In this document: piece after piece, positions 3,591 through 12,801 of the stretch
Position numbering within the stretch: the first letter of the stretch is position 1
Layout of the letters: the number at the start of each line of letters is the position of its first letter
Virus record (IMG/VR): IMGVR_UViG_2563366845_000007
Coordinates: 1-12,801 of that record
Source of the DNA: a virus
Taxonomy: Duplodnaviria; Heunggongvirae; Uroviricota; Caudoviricetes
DNA: 12,801 bases
Direction: 5' to 3' (one strand)
Notes under the pieces: generated by a model
Told to the model about the DNA's origin: nothing
The model's database searches: none
What the model saw: only the letters and a program-made list of their open reading frames with translations
Program-made: the position numbers and the translations under genes

Positions 3591-4334
3591 ATGACAGAGA
3601 CAGAATCAGCGATTCTGGCGCACGCCCGGCGATGTGCGCCAGCGGAGTCGTGCGGCTTCGTGGTGAGAGCGCCGGAGGGGGAAAGATATTTTCCCTGCGT
3701 GAATATTTCCGGTGAGCCGGAGGATTATTTCCGGATGGCTCCGGAGGACTGGCTGCAGGCAGAAATGCAGGGTGAGATTGTGGCGCTGGTCCACAGTCAC
3801 CCCGGTGGTCTGCCCTGGCTGAGTAAGGCCGACCGGCGGCTGCAGGTGCAGAGTGATTTGCCGTGGTGGCTGGTCTGCCGGGGGGCGATTCACAAGTTCC
3901 GCTGTGTGCCGCATCTTACCGGGCGGTGCTTTGAGCACGGGGTGACGGACTGTTACACGCTGTTCCGGGATGCTTACCATCTGGCGGGAATTGAGATGCC
4001 GGATTTTCATCGCGGGGATGACTGGTGGCGTCACGCTCAGAATCTCTATCTTGACAATATGGAGGCGACTGGTTTTTACCGTGTCGCACTGACAGAGGCG
4101 CAGCCGGGCGATGTGCTGCTGTGCTGCTTTGGTTCATCGGTGCCGAATCATGCCGCTATTTACTGTGGTGACGGCGAGATGCTGCACCATATTCCTGAAC
4201 AACTGAGTAAACGAGAGAGGTATACCGACAAATGGCAGCGACGCACACACTCCCTCTGGCGTCACCGGGCATGGCGCGCATCTGCCTTTACGGGGATTTG
4301 CAACGATTTGGCCGCCGCATCGACCTTCGTGTGA
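3591..4334 (+). CDS. K: Tail tip assembly protein K (JAB/MPN metalloprotease-like plus NlpC/P60-like domains), 247 aa from the ATG at 3591
   Basis: The ORF-track frame opens at TTG 3549; the first ATG is at 3591, 4 nt after the L stop. A JAMM-like motif HSHPGGLPWLSKAD (HxHx7Sx2D) is preceded by ILAHARRCAPAESCGFVV, typical of an MPN N-terminus. The C-terminal half has NlpC/P60-like Cys/His context (VTDCYTLFRDAYHLAG ... HAAIYCGDGEMLHH). The classical lambda K annotation (199 aa) corresponds to the internal ATG at 3735. Confidence 0.88.
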   Translation: MTETESAILAHARRCAPAESCGFVVRAPEGERYFPCVNISGEPEDYFRMAPEDWLQAEMQGEIVALVHSHPGGLPWLSKADRRLQVQSDLPWWLVCRGAIHKFRCVPHLTGRCFEHGVTDCYTLFRDAYHLAGIEMPDFHRGDDWWRHAQNLYLDNMEATGFYRVALTEAQPGDVLLCCFGSSVPNHAAIYCGDGEMLHHIPEQLSKRERYTDKWQRRTHSLWRHRAWRASAFTGICNDLAAASTFV

Positions 4335-4903
4335 AAACGGGGGCTGAAGCCATCCGCGTACTGGCCACACAGCTCCCGGCGTTTCGTCAGAAACTGAGCA
4401 ACGGCTGGTATCAGGTACGGATTGCCGGGCGGGACGTCAGCACGTCCGGATTAACGGCGCAGTTACATGAGACTCTGCCTGATGGCGCTGTGATTCATAT
4501 TGTTCCCAGAGTCGCCGGGGCCAAGTCAGGTGGTGTATTCCAGATTGTCCTGGGGGCTGCCGCCATTGCCGGATCATTCTTTACCGCCGGAGCCACCCTT
4601 GCAGCATGGGGGGCAGCCATTGGGGCCGGTGGTATGACCGGCATCCTGTTTTCTCTCGGTGCCAGTATGGTGCTCGGTGGTGTGGCGCAGATGCTGGCAC
4701 CGAAAGCCAGAACTCCCCGTACACAGACAACGGATAACGGTAAGCAGAACACCTATTTCTCCTCACTGGATAACATGGTTGCCCAGGGCAATGTTCTGCC
4801 TGTTCTGTACGGTGAAATGCGCGTGGGGTCACGCGTGATTTCTCAGGAGATCAGCACGGCAGACGAAGGGGATGGTGGTCAGGTTGTGGTGATTGGTCGC
4901 TGA
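4232..4903 (+). CDS. I: Tail tip assembly protein I (lambda gpI-like), 223 aa
   Basis: 223-aa ORF, same length as lambda I. Starts 103 nt inside the 3' end of K in another frame, as in lambda. Gly/Ala-rich hydrophobic centre (GGVFQIVLGAAAIAGSFFTAGATLAAWGAAIGAGGMTGILFSLGASMVLGG). Confidence 0.9.
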   Translation: MAATHTLPLASPGMARICLYGDLQRFGRRIDLRVKTGAEAIRVLATQLPAFRQKLSNGWYQVRIAGRDVSTSGLTAQLHETLPDGAVIHIVPRVAGAKSGGVFQIVLGAAAIAGSFFTAGATLAAWGAAIGAGGMTGILFSLGASMVLGGVAQMLAPKARTPRTQTTDNGKQNTYFSSLDNMVAQGNVLPVLYGEMRVGSRVISQEISTADEGDGGQVVVIGR

Positions 4904-4921
4904 TGCAAAATGTTTTATGTG

Positions 4922-4941
4922 AAACCGCCTCCGGGCGGTTT
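4922..4941 (+). promoter_or_regulatory. Perfect 8-bp stem / 4-nt loop hairpin in the I-J intergenic spacer (AAACCGCC-TCCG-GGCGGTTT), followed by U-rich sequence
   Basis: Read directly: the two arms are exact reverse complements, with TATCGTTTA downstream. It sits between the I stop (4903) and J start (4964). Could be a weak attenuator, an RNA stability element, or a translational modulator. Confidence 0.35.
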
Positions 4942-4963
4942 TATCGTTTATGGATCATGACGA

Positions 4964-7900
4964 ATGGGTAAAGGCAGCAGTAAGGGGCATACCCCGCGCG
5001 AAGCGAAGGACAACCTGAAATCATCCCAGATGCTGAGCGTGATAGACGCCATCAGTGAAGGGCCGGTTGAAGGTCCGGTGGACGGATTAAAAAGTGTGCT
5101 GCTGAACAGTACGCCAGTGCTGGACAGTGAGGGGAATACCAATATCTCCGGCGTCACGGTGGTGTTCCGGGCAGGTGAGCAGGAGCAGACACCGCCGGAG
5201 GGGTTTGAATCCTCCGGCTCCGAGACGGTGCTGGGTACGGAAGTGAAATACGACACGCCGATCACCCGCACCATCACGTCGGCAAACATCGACCGTCTGC
5301 GCTTTACCTTCGGTGTGCAGGCACTGGTGGAAACCACCTCAAAGGGTGACAGGAATCCGTCGGAAGTCCGCCTGCTGGTTCAGATACAGCGTAATGGTGG
5401 CTGGGTGACGGAAAAAGACATCACCATTAAGGGCAAAACCACCTCACAGTATCTGGTCTCGGTGGTGGTGGATAACCTGCCGCCGCGCCCGTTTAATATC
5501 CGGATGCGCAGGATGACGCCGGACAGCACTACAGACCAGCTGCAGAACAAAACGCTCTGGTCGTCATACACCGAAATCATCGATGTGAAACAGTGCTACC
5601 CGAACACGGCACTGGTCGGCGTACAGGTGGACTCGGAGCAGTTCGGCAGCCAGCAGGTGAGTCGTAATTATCATCTTCGCGGGCGCATTCTGCAGGTGCC
5701 GTCGAACTATAACCCGCAGACGCGACAATACAGCGGTATCTGGGACGGAACGTTTAAACCGGCATACAGCAACAACATGGCCTGGTGTCTGTGGGATATG
5801 CTGACCCATCCGCGCTACGGCATGGGGAAACGTCTTGGTGCGGCGGATGTGGATAAATGGGCGCTGTATGTCATCGGCCAGTACTGCGACCAGTCGGTGC
5901 CGGACGGCTTTGGCGGCACGGAGCCGCGCATTACCTGTAATGCGTACCTGACCACACAGCGCAAGGCGTGGGATGTGCTCAGTGATTTCTGCTCGGCGAT
6001 GCGCTGTATGCCGGTATGGAACGGGCAGACGCTGACGTTCGTGCAGGACCGACCATCAGATAAGGTGTGGACCTATAACCGCAGTAATGTGGTGATGCCG
6101 GATGATGGCGCGCCGTTCCGCTACAGCTTCAGCGCCCTGAAGGACCGCCATAATGCCGTTGAGGTGAACTGGATTGACCCGGATAACGGCTGGGAGACGG
6201 CGACAGAGCTTGTGGAGGACACGCAGGCCATTCTCCGTTACGGTCGTAACGTCACGAAGATGGATGCCTTTGGCTGTACCAGCCGGGGGCAGGCACACCG
6301 CGCCGGGCTGTGGCTGATTAAAACGGAGCTGCTGGAGACGCAGACCGTGGATTTCAGCGTGGGTGCCGAAGGGCTTCGCCATGTGCCGGGTGATGTTATT
6401 GAAATCTGTGATGATGACTATGCCGGTATCAGCACCGGTGGTCGCGTGCTGGCGGTGAACAGCCAGACCCGGACGCTGACGCTCGACCGTGAAATCACGC
6501 TGCCATCCTCCGGTACCACACTGATAAGCCTGGTTGACGGAAGTGGGAATCCGGTCAGCGTGGAGGTTCAGTCCGTCACCGACGGCGTGAAGGTGAAAGT
6601 GAGCCGTGTTCCTGATGGTGTTGCTGAATACAGCGTGTGGGGGCTGAAGCTGCCGACGCTACGCCAGCGCCTGTTCCGCTGTGTGAGTATCCGTGAGAAC
6701 GACGACGGCACGTATGCCATCACTGCCGTGCAGCATGTACCGGAGAAAGAAGCCATCGTGGATAACGGGGCGCACTTTGACGGTGACCAGAGCGGCACGG
6801 TGAATGGTGTCACGCCGCCAGCAGTGCAGCATCTGACCGCCGAAGTCACCGCAGACAGCGGGGAATATCAGGTGCTGGCGCGATGGGACACGCCGAAGGT
6901 GGTGAAGGGTGTGAGCTTTATGCTTCGCCTGACTGTGGCAGCAGACGACGGCAGTGAGCGGCTGGTCAGCACGGCCCGGACGACGGAAACCACATACCGC
7001 TTCACGCAACTGGCGCTGGGGCGTTACACGCTGACGGTCCGGGCGGTAAATACCCGGGGACAGCAGGGCGATCCGGCATCGGTATCGTTCCGGATTGCCG
7101 CACCGGCAGCACCGTCGCGGATTGAGCTGACGCCGGGCTATTTTCAGATAACCGCCACGCCGCATCTTGCGATTTATGATCCGACGGTACAGTTTGAGTT
7201 CTGGTTCTCGGAAAAGCGGATTACCGATATCAGGCAGGTTGAAACCACAGCCCGCTATCTTGGTACGGCGCTGTACTGGATAGCCGCCAGTATCAATATC
7301 AAACCGGGCCATGATTATTATTTTTACATTCGCAGTGTGAACACCGTTGGCAAATCGGCATTTGTGGAGGCTGTTGGCCAGCCGAGTGATGATGCATCCG
7401 GCTATCTGGATTTTTTCAAAGGAGAGATAGGGAAAACCCATCTGGCTCAGGAGTTGTGGGCGCAGATTGATAACGGTCAGCTTGCGCCTGACCTGGCTGA
7501 AATCAGGACGTCCATTACGGATGTCAGCAATGAAATCACGCAGACCGTCAATAAGAAACTGGAAGACCAGAGTGCAGCGATCCAGCAGATACAGAAGGTT
7601 CAGGTTGATACAAATAATAACCTGAACAGCATGTGGGCTGTGAAGCTGCAGCAGATGCAGGACGGACGCCTTTATATCGCGGGTATTGGTGCCGGTATTG
7701 AGAATACTCCTGACGGTATGCAGAGTCAGGTGCTGCTGGCGGCGGACAGGATTGCGATGATTAATCCTGCGAATGGCAACACAAAGCCGATGTTTGTTGG
7801 TCAGGGCGATCAGATATTCATGAACGAAGTGTTCCTGAAATATCTGACGGCTCCCACCATTACCAGCGGCGGTAATCCTCCGGCATTTTCCCTGACACCG

Positions 7901-8443
7901 GACGGGCGGCTGACGGCGAAAAATGCCGATATCAGCGGTAACGTGAATGCGAACTCCGGGACGCTCAACAACGTCACGATTAACGAGAACTGCCGGGTTC
8001 TGGGAAAACTGTCCGCGAACCAGATTGAAGGCGATCTCGTTAAAACAGTGGGTAAAGCTTTCCCCCGGGACTCCCGTGCACCGGAACGGTGGCCATCAGG
8101 GACCATTACCGTCAGGATTTATGACGATCAGCCGTTTGACCGACAGATTGTTATTCCGGCGGTGGCATTCAGCGGCGCTAAACATGAGAGAGAGCATACT
8201 GATATTTACTCCTCATGCCGTCTGATAGTGCGGAAAAACGGTGCTGAAATTTATAACCGTACCGCGCTGGATAATACGCTGATTTACAGTGGCGTTATTG
8301 ATATGTCTGCCGGTCACGGTCACATGACGCTGGAGTTTTCGGTGTCAGCATGGCTGGTAAATGGCTGGTATCCCACAGCAAGTATCAGCGATTTGCTGGT
8401 TGTTGTGATGAAGAAAGCCACTGCAGGCATCACGATTAGCTGA
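4964..8443 (+). CDS. J: Central tail fiber / host specificity protein J (lambda gpJ-like), 1159 aa
   Basis: Giant ORF starting [20 protein letters not shown], 61 nt after I as in lambda. The middle region has FN3-like repeats (e.g. [32 protein letters not shown]). It is 27 aa longer than lambda J (1132 aa, from memory). Confidence 0.95.
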
Positions 8444-8462
8444 ATTTTATAACCCAGATACG

Positions 8463-8488
8463 GGCGCCAGAAATGGCGCCTTTTTTAT
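8463..8488 (+). terminator. Rho-independent terminator downstream of J
   Basis: GGCGCCA-GAAA-TGGCGCC: perfect 7-bp GC-rich stem with a GNRA-type tetraloop, followed directly by TTTTTTATT. Confidence 0.7.
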
Positions 8489-8510
8489 TGCAGAAAAGCG
8501 AGAGGTAATT

Positions 8511-9110
8511 ATGCGTAAATTATGTGCTGTTATTCTGTCCACAGTAGTCTGGCTGGTCGTCGCTGGTACGCCAGCGAGCGCAGCAGAGCATCAGTCCACA
8601 CTAAGCGCCGGGTATCTTCAGACCCATAATGATATGCCCGGCAACGATGACCTGAAGGGCATTAACGTGAAATACCGTTATGAATTTACGGACACGCTGG
8701 GGCTGGTGACGTCATTCAGTTATGCCAATGCCAAAGATGAGCAAAAAACGCATTACAGCGATACCCGCTGGCATGAAGATTCAGTGCGTAACCGCTGGTT
8801 CAGCATGATGGCGGGGCCGTCTGTACGCGTGAATGAATGGTTCAGTGCTTATGCGATGGCAGGTGTGGCTTACAGCCGTGTTTCGACTTTTTCCGGGGAT
8901 TATCTCCGCGTAACTGACATCAAGGGGAAAACGCACGATGTGCTGACCGGAAGTGATGACGGTCGCCACAGCAACACGTCTCTGGCGTGGGGGGCTGGCG
9001 TGCAGTTTAACCCGACCGAATCCGTGGCCATTGATATTGCTTATGAAGGCTCCGGCAGTGGTGACTGGCGCACTGACGGTTTCATCGTGGGTGTCGGTTA
9101 TAAATTCTGA
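8511..9110 (+). CDS. lom: Lom/Ail/OmpX-family outer-membrane beta-barrel protein, 199 aa
   Basis: RBS GAGAGG 7 nt upstream of the ATG. Signal peptide MRKLCAVILSTVVWLVVAGTPASA. Family motifs GINVKYRYE and C-terminal IAYEGSGSGDWRTDGFIVGVGYKF ending in Phe (OMP sorting signal). Position after J matches lambda lom; the sequence is divergent from lambda Lom (206 aa, from memory). Confidence 0.9.
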   Translation: MRKLCAVILSTVVWLVVAGTPASAAEHQSTLSAGYLQTHNDMPGNDDLKGINVKYRYEFTDTLGLVTSFSYANAKDEQKTHYSDTRWHEDSVRNRWFSMMAGPSVRVNEWFSAYAMAGVAYSRVSTFSGDYLRVTDIKGKTHDVLTGSDDGRHSNTSLAWGAGVQFNPTESVAIDIAYEGSGSGDWRTDGFIVGVGYKF

Positions 9111-9136
9111 TTAGCCAGGTAACACAGTGTTATGAC

Positions 9137-9164
9137 AGCCCGCCGGTTCAGGCGGGCTTTTTTG
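9137..9164 (+). terminator. Rho-independent terminator downstream of lom
   Basis: AGCCCGCC-GGTTCA-GGCGGGCT: perfect 8-bp stem, followed by TTTTTT. It ends only about 10 nt before the side tail fiber start codon. Confidence 0.7.
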
Positions 9165-9174
9165 TGGAGTGGAT

Positions 9175-11532
9175 ATGGCAGCAGTAAAAATCTCAGGTGT
9201 GCTGAAAGATGGTGCGGGAAAACCAATACAGAACTGCACTATTCAACTGAAGGCAAAGCGTAACAGCACCACGGTACTGGTGAACACGGTGGCTTCTGAA
9301 AATCCGGATGAAGCCGGGCGTTACAGCATGGACGTTGAGTATGGTCAGTACAGCGTCATCCTGCTGGTTGAAGGTTTTCTGCCTTCACATGCCGGGACCA
9401 TTACCGTCTATGAAGGCTCCAGACCAGGTACGCTGAATGATTTTCTCGGTGCCATGACGGAAGATGATGTCATGCCGGAGGCATTGCGTCGTTTTGAGGC
9501 AATGGTGGAAGAAGCGGCACGCAACGCCGAAGCCGCCTCTCAGAGCGCAGCGGCGGCAAAGAAATCCGAAACTGCAGCGGCATCATCGAAGAACGCGGCG
9601 AAAACCTCAGAAACGAATGCAGCTAATAGTGCACAGGCGGCAGCGACCTCACAGACTTCATCAGCAAACTCCGCGACAGCAGCCAAAAAATCAGAAACCA
9701 ACGCGAAAAATAGCGAGACAGCCGCAAAGACGAGCGAAACCAACGCGAAGTCCAGCCAGACGGCAGCGAAAACCAGCGAAACGAATGCCAAAGCCAGTGA
9801 AACTGCGGCGAAAAGCAGTCAGGATGCAGCAGCCGAAAGCGAGAGTGCTGCAGCTGGTTCTGCGACTTCAGCAGCTGGATCAGCAACTGCTGCGGCTAAC
9901 AGCCAGAAAGCCGCGAAGACGAGCGAAACTAACGCAAAGTCCAGCCAGACGGCAGCGAAGACCAGCGAAACGAATGCCAAAGCCAGCGAAACTGCGGCGA
10001 AAAACAGTCAGGATGCAGCAGCCCAAAGCGAGAGTGCCGCAGCTGGTTCTGCAACAGCGGCAGCTAATAGCCAAAAAGCTGCAAAAACCAGTGAAACTAA
10101 CGCAAAGACGAGTGAAACAAAAGCAGCAGCCAGCGAGACAGAAGCAACGTCAGCCGCAACAAGAGCAGAGAATGCAGCCCGGATTGCAGAAGATGCCGCT
10201 GATCCTGCTTCTGTCCCTCCGCTTCCTGATATCTGGCTACCCTTGAATGATTCTCTGGAAGCGATAACAGGGTATGCCCCGGGCTATAAAACAATAACCA
10301 TCGGCAGTGATGAAATAACAATGCCTGTTAATGGCATATGCCAATTTAGCCGGGCTTCATCTGCAACGTATATTGATAAGTCCGGGCATATTACCGTGGC
10401 AGGGAATAACGTTCCTCGTTTTGAAAAATATGGTTTGCTGATAGAGAATCAGCGAACAAACATGTTCGTAAATAGTTTTAATCCTGATGCCTGGAATAAA
10501 AGCGGTGGTATATCTGTAACATCATCAACAGATGAATTTGAGTTTAAATATGGACGTTTCACGGTAGGAAGCGATATAGCAGGAACGACAACAGGGCGAA
10601 ATATATGCACAGTTGCTGGTAACAAAGGCATAGATGTGACTGGCGATGATCAGTACAGTAAAGGTCCGTATGTTACCGCGTCGTTCAGGGTAAGAAGTGA
10701 TCTCAATGTTCGCGCACGTATCCGTTTTGAACGGTATAACTCGGAAGGATACACCTTCCTTTGCGACGCCTATTTGTCATTACAGACCCATGAACTACAA
10801 ATTACTGGTGGCAATGCCCAGCTATTAACAGCAAACTTTGAAATCGATCCAGGTAGTGGATGGATATATTTTCAGGCAACACTGAAATGTCTGCCAGAAT
10901 GGGGAATGGTTGGTACGCAGCTGCAAATTGCAGCCGACAGAGCTGTGGGGTCTTTTGCAACAGGTGACTGGATAGAAGTAACCACCCCGCAATTCGAGTA
11001 TGGTGCTTGTGCAACTTCCTTCATCATAACGACAACTGAGCCAGCGACTCGTGCATCAGATTTATGTAAATTTCCGCTGATGAAAAATATGTATACCATG
11101 CCTTTTACGTTCATGGTGGAAGTCCATAAAAACTGGTTTATTTCTCATAATGCGGCACCGCGTGTCATTGATTCAGAAAATCACCAGTCCGGAGGCCCAT
11201 TTATTATGGGGTTTGGTTCTTCTGGAACTATTAGTCAGGACGGTTATTCGTATTGCGATATAGGCGGGGCTAACCGGCGTGTATATGAGTCATGCGGAGT
11301 AAGAGATCTTGTTATGGGATTCAGGGTTAAGGCTGACGGCATGACATGCTCATTTGCAAATAAGCATATAAGCACAGAAACAAAAACAGTATGGAAATAT
11401 ATTCGTGAAGCTGCTGTGATTCGTATCGGGGGACAAACGACGACAGGATTACGACACCTTAATGGTCATATAAAAAACCTCCGTTTCTGGAACAGAGCAT
11501 TGTCAGATACGCAGCTTAAGGAATACGTATAA
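9175..11532 (+). CDS. Side tail fiber protein, mosaic: Stf-like N-terminal domain, Ala/Ser/Thr-rich repeat shaft, LamG/concanavalin-like C-terminal putative receptor-binding domain (785 aa from ATG 9175)
   Basis: The ORF-track frame opens at GTG 9169; ATG at 9175 gives MAAVKISGVLKDG..., resembling the lambda Stf N-terminus (from memory), with GGAGTGG just upstream. Residues around 120-330 are repeats of the AAKTSETNAKSSQTAAK type. The C-terminus ends HLNGHIKNLRFWNRALSDTQLKEYV, a signature typical of LamG/ConA-like jelly-roll lectin domains. The C-terminal half is clearly more AT-rich than the N-terminus. Confidence 0.85.
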   Translation: MAAVKISGVLKDGAGKPIQNCTIQLKAKRNSTTVLVNTVASENPDEAGRYSMDVEYGQYSVILLVEGFLPSHAGTITVYEGSRPGTLNDFLGAMTEDDVMPEALRRFEAMVEEAARNAEAASQSAAAAKKSETAAASSKNAAKTSETNAANSAQAAATSQTSSANSATAAKKSETNAKNSETAAKTSETNAKSSQTAAKTSETNAKASETAAKSSQDAAAESESAAAGSATSAAGSATAAANSQKAAKTSETNAKSSQTAAKTSETNAKASETAAKNSQDAAAQSESAAAGSATAAANSQKAAKTSETNAKTSETKAAASETEATSAATRAENAARIAEDAADPASVPPLPDIWLPLNDSLEAITGYAPGYKTITIGSDEITMPVNGICQFSRASSATYIDKSGHITVAGNNVPRFEKYGLLIENQRTNMFVNSFNPDAWNKSGGISVTSSTDEFEFKYGRFTVGSDIAGTTTGRNICTVAGNKGIDVTGDDQYSKGPYVTASFRVRSDLNVRARIRFERYNSEGYTFLCDAYLSLQTHELQITGGNAQLLTANFEIDPGSGWIYFQATLKCLPEWGMVGTQLQIAADRAVGSFATGDWIEVTTPQFEYGACATSFIITTTEPATRASDLCKFPLMKNMYTMPFTFMVEVHKNWFISHNAAPRVIDSENHQSGGPFIMGFGSSGTISQDGYSYCDIGGANRRVYESCGVRDLVMGFRVKADGMTCSFANKHISTETKTVWKYIREAAVIRIGGQTTTGLRHLNGHIKNLRFWNRALSDTQLKEYV
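9721..10080 (+). repeat. In-frame tandem duplication inside the fiber shaft (copy A about 9721-9909, copy B about 9910-10080)
   Basis: Copy A (gccgcaaagacgagcgaaaccaacgcgaag...) and copy B (gccgcgaagacgagcgaaactaacgcaaag...) align with roughly 10 mismatches over about 147 nt. Copy A carries an extra 21-nt internal mini-duplication (GSATSAAGSATAA vs GSATAA). Degenerate copies of the same unit flank both sides (9540-9720 and 10081-10140). Confidence 0.8.
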
Positions 11533-11801
11533 TGCGGGATATAACATTACGATTCGATAACAGAGAACAGTTTAACGCAATTGTATATGACAGTGGCCTG
11601 TTCAGTCTTGAAGAAGAAAACGGGGTTCTTGTTGATGTTATTGGCTGCATTATTGATTACGAGGAGCCAGAAAACGAAAGATGTACAGGCATTGATCGCG
11701 GTGGTTTTTTCGTAAACATGAGGATTGTTGATGGCAGTAAAAACATATCTTCTTTAATGCCTTTCATTACGACAGATCAGCATGTAAGGACATGGGCTTA
11801 A
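11532..11801 (+). CDS. Hypothetical small acidic protein, 89 aa, translationally coupled to the fiber gene
   Basis: The ATG overlaps the fiber stop by 1 nt (TAATG at 11530-11534), with AAGGAA 9 nt upstream. No recognisable motif; acidic (many D/E) and AT-rich. Its position suggests a fiber accessory or assembly factor, but this is unproven. Confidence 0.55.
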   Translation: MRDITLRFDNREQFNAIVYDSGLFSLEEENGVLVDVIGCIIDYEEPENERCTGIDRGGFFVNMRIVDGSKNISSLMPFITTDQHVRTWA

Positions 11802-11813
11802 TGGAGTAAGACA

Positions 11814-12497
11814 ATGGTTACAAAAACAGTAATTCCGGGAGACATCACCACGCTAAAGGGAGATATTTCCTCAATTAACGGAAAAGTATCAACGCTTCAG
11901 ACTGAGATGACCAGTGCAAAGCAGGATATCAGCTCCAGATACACAAAAACTGAAGTTGATAATAAGCTGAAAAACAAAGTGGAAGTGAACGATCTGGAAA
12001 GTGGTCGTTATGGTGGAGATTTTTACCCGCTGACTGGCCGTGAAGCGTTTTATTTATGGAATTTGGGCACGACTACAGCGGCGGCAAACCTTTATCTTAA
12101 TCCTGACCCTGCAATTTCGTCTGTACTGCGGTCAACATCGTCTATTCGCTATAAACATTCAGTAGAGACGATAGATTCAGAGCACGCCGCTCTCATTTTC
12201 AGGATGCGCCCTGTGTGGTACAGGTCGCAATGCGAAAATGACAGGCATGACTGGGGATTCTACGGATTGATTGCCGAGGAAGTAGGAGAAATTGCCCCTC
12301 AGTTTGTACACTGGCGACCAGCTAACGAAGATGATGCTCCTGAAGCTATTTCCAGCAATGGCCTTGTTGCCGAAGGTGTAATGTACGAACGTCTGGTTGT
12401 TCCACTGATTCACCATATCCAGAAACTGACTGAAAGAGTTGATGAACTTGAGTCAGAATTGAAGTTGTTATCAACTTCCCGAAGCGATATCGGATAA
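11814..12497 (+). CDS. Hypothetical protein, 227 aa: N-terminal coiled-coil-like segment plus C-terminal domain resembling the peptidase S74 intramolecular chaperone of tail fibers/endosialidases
   Basis: RBS GGAG 7 nt upstream of the ATG. Residues 105-119 (RSTSSIRYKHSVETI) fit the S-x-x-R-x-K autoproteolysis motif (putative Ser109/Lys114). Downstream WGFYGLIAEEVGEIAPQFV and a C-terminal amphipathic helix (VVPLIHHIQKLTERVDELESELKLL) match the conserved layout of that domain. The assignment is from motif recall, not a search. Confidence 0.65.
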   Translation: MVTKTVIPGDITTLKGDISSINGKVSTLQTEMTSAKQDISSRYTKTEVDNKLKNKVEVNDLESGRYGGDFYPLTGREAFYLWNLGTTTAAANLYLNPDPAISSVLRSTSSIRYKHSVETIDSEHAALIFRMRPVWYRSQCENDRHDWGFYGLIAEEVGEIAPQFVHWRPANEDDAPEAISSNGLVAEGVMYERLVVPLIHHIQKLTERVDELESELKLLSTSRSDIG

Positions 12498-12507
12498 AGG
12501 AGGAGTA

Positions 12508-12801
12508 ATGGATATAACACCTTTTCTTCATGCGCTTTGTGCTGTGGCTGCGCAGGTACTGATTGGCCTTTTTACCGGAAACTGGGCTTACGGTGCGATA
12601 GCCGGTTGTACGTTCTTCATTGCGCGTGAACACACCCAGGCAGAATATCGCTGGATTGAAATGTTCGGGCATGGCAAGCGAATGAATATGCCGTGGTGGG
12701 GCGGTTTTGATCCGCGCGCATGGGATGTGGCAAGCCTGATGGATTTTGCTGTGCCGGTGGTGGCGTGTCTGCTGGTCTGGCTGTTGGTTAATCGTGGGTG
12801 A
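12508..12801 (+). CDS. Hypothetical small membrane protein, 97 aa, two predicted hydrophobic segments
   Basis: Strong RBS AAGGAGG 5 nt upstream of the ATG. Hydrophobic stretches LHALCAVAAQVLIGLFTGNWAYGAIAGCTFFIA and VASLMDFAVPVVACLLVWLLV flank a polar loop (REHTQAEYRWIEMFGHGKRMNMPWWGGFDPRAWD). No lipobox. The stop codon is the last three bases of the window. Confidence 0.6.
   Translation: MDITPFLHALCAVAAQVLIGLFTGNWAYGAIAGCTFFIAREHTQAEYRWIEMFGHGKRMNMPWWGGFDPRAWDVASLMDFAVPVVACLLVWLLVNRG

Follow-up and report, generated by a model that had tools for sequence, protein, structure and literature searches.

The side tail fibre gene (stf) of this lambda-like Escherichia coli prophage joins an anchor of the lambda Stf type and a repeat shaft to a C-terminal module of two ConA-like beta-sandwiches, and the module belongs to a three-gene cassette that recurs in the same order in unrelated phages. 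Side tail fibres make the first contact between phage and host, and thus set which strains a prophage reaches, and their mosaicism is textbook knowledge. We consider it probable that Stf is the proximal subunit of a two-component side fibre, composed of a cassette-borne glycan-binding module, a small partner protein (orf89) and a distal fibre (orf227). According to this model, the N-terminal 100-130 residues would dock the trimer on the tail tip in a lambda-like manner, followed by a SETNAK shaft and, in each chain, a conserved junction and two tandem ConA-like sandwiches. These sandwiches would protrude at the end of the shaft, where they most likely bind a surface polysaccharide, O-antigen or capsule, in a weak and reversible manner. 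The module was gained through homologous recombination in the shaft repeats, within a low-GC cassette. Orf89 would serve as a co-varying, translationally coupled chaperone or adaptor, and orf227 would form a short trimeric fibre with its own chaperone, which plugs into the Stf end via its N-terminal motif.

Genomic setting, anchor and shaft

The window, that is, the whole stretch of 12,801 nucleotides that was analysed, comprises the tail end of the prophage, with the gene order H, M, L, K, I, J, lom, and then stf. The tape measure gene H is located at 1-2562, J (4964-8443) matches lambda J with its residues 1-835, lom (8511-9110) matches PF06316 (E 4e-125), and stf lies directly downstream of J and lom, as part of a lambda-type tail operon. 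It is an intact ORF of 785 amino acids on the plus strand, at 9175..11532, exactly as originally predicted. The start codon is the ATG at 9175, with a GGAG 5 nt upstream, and a strong terminator of lom (9137-9158, with a T-run) is located just 5' of this ATG. Stf matches phrog_1419 over its full length (positions 1-793) and is 97-100% identical to Stf of the plaque-forming phage PhiR55_1, which shares 97% identity with the window over 8400-12787. Copies of stf that are 98-99.9% identical, at a coverage of at least 80%, were found in prophages of 131 of 5,426 complete E. coli genomes, and many of these hosts are extraintestinal or avian pathogenic E. coli, K1 strains among them.

In E. coli strain 746 (NZ_CP023353.1), in which positions 4001-6358 of locus L001 correspond to 9175-11532 of the window, RefSeq splits stf into an N-terminal pseudogene fragment and a separate 'phage head spike fiber domain-containing protein'. 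Since the DNA is 99.9% identical and the ORF of 787 codons is intact, this split looks like an annotation artefact arising from the repeat shaft and not a true disruption. The upstream genes showed two further irregularities. In lom, the identity with PhiR55_1 dips locally to 79% at 8711-8810, inside an otherwise 97% identical gene, pointing to a surface loop that varies or to a small patch of recombination. J is also mosaic, in that its C-terminal receptor-binding part (aa 866-1159, 7559-8440) is closest to the 'A8 gpJ' variant (PDB 9wca, E 9e-183) and not to that of lambda, and nowhere in the window does GC change more strongly than at 7138, inside J (from 0.58 to 0.49).

The resemblance of the Stf N-terminus to the lambda attachment region, proposed from the sequence, was borne out by profile and structure databases. 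Residues 3-132 (9181..9570, plus strand) match PF08400 with 220.5 bits against a cut-off of 26.6 (E 8.2e-66), and the comparison with solved lambda Stf (PDB 9e7m_Ta, E 3e-48) revealed near-identity (~88%) over 93 residues. Because of this identity to the resolved lambda N-terminus, Stf trimers would be expected to attach to the tail tip as in lambda. The adjoining shaft (aa ~103-345, 9481..10209, plus strand) is rich in Ala, Ser, Thr and Lys and of the SETNAK type, with tandem repeats at 9675-10147 that have periods of 21, 42 and 189 nt, and it weakly matches the shaft of DT57C LtfA. The codon repeats of the shaft (GCA/AAA/ACN/GAA) are rich in A, which accounts for a very strong AT skew (0.5-0.66) at 9451-10200 of the window, as well as for a 260-aa ORF in another frame (9464-10246), which was discarded as a repeat by-product and not a separate gene.

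Two ConA-like sandwiches at the C-terminus

A LamG/ConA-like lectin fold had been proposed for the C-terminal part, and the proposal turned out to be correct, except that two sandwiches are present instead of one. A single-sequence Pfam search with the whole of Stf returned no LamG match, and a Beta_helix match with an E-value of 0.1 was dismissed as noise. On Stf alone, PF13385 (Laminin_G_3) stayed below its cut-off (21.3 bits versus 27.6, E 3.3e-4) and covered the last ~50 residues and profile positions 102-150 only; the presumed lectin signature RFWNRALSDTQL (residues 770-781, 11482-11517) lies within this match. At the family level, however, 35 of 58 diverse homologues matched PF13385 at E<=0.01, with a best E-value of 1.9e-11. 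Residues 422-627 matched NF048003 (NCBIfam 'phage head spike fibre') with 47.9 bits against a cut-off of 36. A profile of the module family, which counts 2,077 representatives (50% clustering, E<=1e-3), retrieved the RcGTA protein Rcc01080 (PDB 6tb9_F3, E 1.1e-34), the baseplate subunits E217 gp45 (2e-15) and Pa193 gp46 at about 1e-15, and a tail fibre gp17 (E 9e-13).

A first structure prediction, based on 26 close homologues (~50% identity), gave a pLDDT of ~24 for the last domain, and the prediction that was used is based on an alignment of 58 sequences with 25-56% identity. In the resulting model, the C-terminus adopts two-sheet jelly-roll beta-sandwich folds. The conserved junction PLPDIWLPLNDSL... 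and the first sandwich, which resembles the RcGTA head spike fibre, together span aa 349-627 (10219..11055, plus strand) and are predicted with a pLDDT >90, in line with the matches to NF048003 and 6tb9. The second sandwich, of a LamG/pentraxin/CBM40-like type, spans aa 624-785 (11044..11529, plus strand) and ends in the RFWNRALSDTQL signature. Foldseek searches against the PDB and viral models agreed with a ConA-like fold and found the two-domain unit of Stf in many phage proteins annotated as ConA-like, and the identity of the Stf sandwiches to the structural templates is only 6-16%. A CBM40-like fold is known from sialic-acid modules, and several lysogens carry a K1 capsule; we regard a connection between the two as speculation, since a fold-level identity of 13% is uninformative on the ligand. 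Among alleles of the module, the sandwich bodies are variable (entropy 2.2-2.35), the first sandwich most of all, and the junction (1.3-1.6) and the last strands are strongly conserved.

Mosaicism and the three-gene cassette

The gene had been described as high in GC in its N-terminal part and AT-rich from about 10200 onward. GC amounts to 0.507 in the anchor, 0.553 in the repeat shaft, and 0.436 in the C-terminal part (10201-11532), and the best two-segment split of 8511-12801 falls inside stf, at 10285 (0.536 versus 0.443, log-likelihood gain 18.0). GC3 falls earlier, from ~0.5 to ~0.3 near 10015-10075. The label 'high-GC' was overstated, as the N-terminal part has the average composition of E. 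coli and the GC of the shaft is partly owed to Ala codons. The AT-rich segment also turned out to be larger than claimed, since the low-GC tract runs past the end of stf through orf89 (0.393) and orf227 (0.447), and stops before orf97 (0.53).

The breakpoints were directly visible in pairwise nucleotide comparisons with the sister phages 2G7b and IdasGreatGrand. Compared to 2G7b, the identity is ~97% from lom to ~10056, drops to 45-65% from ~10110 to ~12500, and returns to 95-100% from 12511. Compared to IdasGreatGrand, the diverged block is shorter (~9860 to ~11812), and the identity is back at ~97% in orf227. Both left breakpoints (~9860 for IdasGreatGrand and ~10056-10110 for 2G7b) lie inside the repeat shaft, from which the homology needed for the exchange evidently comes. 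On the right, the breakpoints coincide with the orf89/orf227 and orf227/orf97 boundaries. The C-terminus of Stf was always swapped together with orf89, and orf227 can be exchanged separately. Both sister phages have an alternative allele of this module, ~50% identical at the protein level, and the event is an allelic replacement within one family and not the capture of a foreign domain. The original observation of a mosaic side tail fibre is hereby confirmed, and its interpretation as horizontal exchange of the receptor-binding module is supported.

The cassette consists of a fibre that ends in the module, a protein of ~90 amino acids, and a second fibre that starts with MxTxTxIPxDIxxLK. The same gene order was found in lambdoid, P2-like, T5-like, T1-like and Queuovirinae phages. 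The module is fused to other anchors as well, including P2 gpH-type N-termini (PF12571/PF03406) and T5-type lateral fibre N-termini next to LtfC, and is also present on T1-like, Dhillonvirus, Queuovirinae and rV5-like fibres. In a synteny sample of 13 loci (the window and 12 further loci), the orf89 motif GyfVNvRi came ~1.47 kb after the start of the module (PLPDxWxP) in all 13, and the gene with the MxTxTxIPxDIxxLK start a further ~129 nt on in 12 of the 13, orf227 being one of these. Dru_SM1 (locus L007, 6411-6700) is the sole examined locus with the module and an orf89 homologue but without the IPxDIxxLK start of a second fibre. Its downstream gene of 369 amino acids starts in sequence that, in T5-like phages, is internal to the second fibre, pointing to a variant that arose by deletion or frameshift. 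Beyond their N-terminus, the second fibres are variable, ranging from 227 to 574 amino acids, and their chaperone is either intramolecular and of the S74 type or encoded separately as a Caudo_TAP.

In the window, orf89 (11532..11801, plus strand; phrog_1361) overlaps with its start codon the stop codon of stf, which ends at 11532, in a TAATG coupling. In each of the 12 other loci of the sample, a homologue of orf89 immediately follows the module, and an alignment of eight homologues supports a partner of ~90 amino acids. A word-indexed homologue search with orf89 yielded fragments only, without an informative name, and a sequence search of the PDB gave no match. Given its translational coupling, its co-variation with the module and its lack of any known family, orf89 may be a dedicated chaperone or adaptor.

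Orf227 (11814..12497, plus strand) is a short second fibre. Its N-terminus bears the conserved motif MVTKTVIPGDITTLK, and it further contains a coiled-coil repeat and, at the C-terminus, an intramolecular chaperone. The motif is of the MxTxTxIPxDIxxLK type, which the second fibres in P2-like, T5-like, T1-like and Queuovirinae phages also have. The chaperone was recognized by PF13884 (Peptidase_S74) at aa 109-165, with 26.2 bits against a cut-off of 22, and by similarity to the C-terminus of DT57C LtfA (E 2.6e-5). If cleaved near Ser109 (SSIRYKHSV), the mature form would have ~108 residues, which is unusually small for a receptor-binding fibre, and would be made up of the plug motif, a short coiled coil that contains a TKTEVD repeat, and a tip of ~45 residues.

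The right flank of the cassette is formed by orf97 (12508..12801, plus strand), a small hydrophobic protein of 97 amino acids without a family match, possibly a membrane moron or exclusion protein. While the fibre genes next to it were swapped, orf97 itself has kept 95-100% identity to its counterparts in 2G7b and IdasGreatGrand. No Caudo_TAP or Tfa match was found within the window, and there is no tfa next to stf. Just past the end of the window, downstream of orf97, strain 746 carries a tfa fragment that lacks the N-terminus (locus L001, 7647-7763), and 2G7b has similar small tfa pieces. The fragment in strain 746 is probably the relic of an ancestral lambda-type stf-tfa pair that was displaced by the present cassette.

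Function of the module and comparison with known systems

Most simply, the cassette can be read as encoding a second protein that docks on orf89, on the end of the first fibre, or on both, because the N-terminus of the second fibre is conserved across unrelated virions while the remainder varies. The same argument underlay the branched LtfA/LtfB fibre of DT57C (PMC4728585). Here, synteny and the conserved N-terminal motif are what points to a contact between Stf, orf89 and orf227. It is also plausible that the sandwiches bind a surface polysaccharide, since the nearest folds belong to glycan-binding modules without catalytic activity, binding to capsule is known for the RcGTA relative, and alleles differ most in the sandwich bodies. 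Some observations speak against the two-component model, namely the PF13385 score of Stf below the gathering cut-off, the missing third motif in Dru_SM1, and the very short mature orf227 (~108 residues). Phages that carry this Stf are propagated on rough strains (E. coli C and K-12), and Stf is therefore dispensable there, and accessory as in lambda. A literature search on LamG/ConA domains in side tail fibres found nothing relevant, and the sole paper that mentions PhiR phages contains no receptor or fibre data.

The position of the module at the extreme C-terminus of Stf would also be expected if it were the distal tip and the sole receptor-binding domain, with orf89 and orf227 as unrelated passengers or remnants of an older fibre. 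The first sandwich is the most variable part among alleles, as would befit a domain that determines specificity. Orf227 is similar to the final portion of long fibre proteins (positions 1147-1384 of phrog_3299), and the tfa fragment in strain 746 indicates that the locus does hold relics. However, passengers would hardly account for an orf89 gene and a second fibre with the same motif that follow the module at constant distances in five or six phage groups unrelated to one another. Moreover, the orf227 allele is intact and ~97% conserved in IdasGreatGrand, a closely related allele is present in the T1-like phage XY3, and in the published model of IrisVonRoten a distal fibre sits on the homologous protein. 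We consider this alternative unlikely.

Another possibility is that the sandwiches are purely structural and, with orf89, form a socket for the distal fibre without binding the host, so that specificity would reside in orf227 and J. The closest solved relative of the first sandwich, E217 gp45 / Pa193 gp46, is indeed a fibre-attachment baseplate subunit (PMC10329688), and the strong conservation of the junction and last strands is what a docking surface for a conserved plug would show. Yet, the fibre-binding loop of E217 (residues 76-123) lies outside the homologous region (197-392), and the sandwich bodies are far from conserved. In addition, the C-terminus of Stf and orf89 are swapped independently of orf227, which suggests selection for diversity, and the RcGTA relative binds capsule. 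We consider a purely structural role quite improbable. Least of all do we expect the ConA-like domains to be a polysaccharide-degrading enzyme (a glucanase or lyase) and the fibre a depolymerase, which is very unlikely.

The two-component model can be extended. The module and orf89 could constitute a universal socket for any distal fibre with the ~16-residue MxTxTxIPxDIxxLK plug, across lambda-, P2-, T5-, T1-like and Queuovirinae virions, with orf89 as adaptor or lock, and the lectin-like domains adding a second, glycan-reading specificity. We put this forward as a tentative idea only. If true, it would amount to a standard interface for receptor-binding proteins across phage families, useful for the retargeting of lambda-based delivery particles. 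In any case, the ligand-reading end of this lambda-type fibre is a module common to at least five enterobacterial phage groups. Whether the module binds O-antigen or capsule would help to predict host range, and whether Stf carries a second fibre would help in the design of chimeric Stf proteins for lambda-derived delivery vectors. The gene itself is ordinary for tailed phages, and has already been deposited, annotated as side tail fibre, in plaque-forming phages. As the architecture of a homologue has been published, the value as a discovery is modest.

Compared to lambda Stf (Ur-lambda), Stf of this prophage is alike in its position after J and lom, its N-terminal anchor (~88% identity to the resolved part), and its repetitive shaft. 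The C-terminus of lambda Stf is T4 gp37-like and needs Tfa, whereas a gp37-like C-terminus with a downstream Tfa is absent here; Stf ends in two ConA-like sandwiches, and is followed by orf89 and a second fibre in place of lambda tfa.

The RcGTA head spike fibre is a flexible appendage that binds capsular polysaccharide (PMC10218006, PMC7296036). Its protein Rcc01080, of which residues 2-10 only have been resolved experimentally, is homologous to the first sandwich of Stf and the flanking strands, but it is a monomer on a capsid pentamer, instead of the end of a trimeric tail fibre, and lacks the second, LamG-like domain. E217 gp45 and Pa193 gp46 are triplex (wedge) subunits of a myovirus baseplate, unlike the tail fibre Stf, and E217 gp45 is the baseplate subunit where the tail fibre attaches (PMC10329688).

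DT57C LtfA/LtfB and phiEco32 gp14/gp15 are likewise two-gene fibres in which a second protein with a conserved N-terminus is carried by the first, and in the branched lateral tail fibre each branch is able to recognise a different O-antigen (PMC4728585). The chaperone domain and TKTEVD repeat of orf227 match LtfA; LtfA has neither a ConA-like module nor an orf89-like partner, and its docking sequences are unrelated to those of the cassette.

The closest counterpart is the T5-like phage IrisVonRoten (Bas32), which shows O16 tolerance. Its anchor differs, being a T5 LTF N-terminus with LtfC, and Gp24 is a 574-aa fibre with dual RBDs, whereas orf227 has 227 amino acids (~108 after the predicted cleavage). 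However, the C-terminal 441 residues of Gp22 share 50.6% identity with the Stf module, Gp23 is a homologue of orf89, and Gp24 starts with MVTKTVIPTDITKLK, as does orf227, with gene order and spacing alike. In the literature, Gp22 is described as the proximal fibre, from which a galectin-like domain protrudes and which bears a distal fibre, and in the BASEL-completion study the attachment of Gp24, a T-shaped distal fibre, to Gp22 is an AlphaFold-Multimer model only. Judged by these likenesses, the architecture described here is a lambdoid member of a previously described fibre type.
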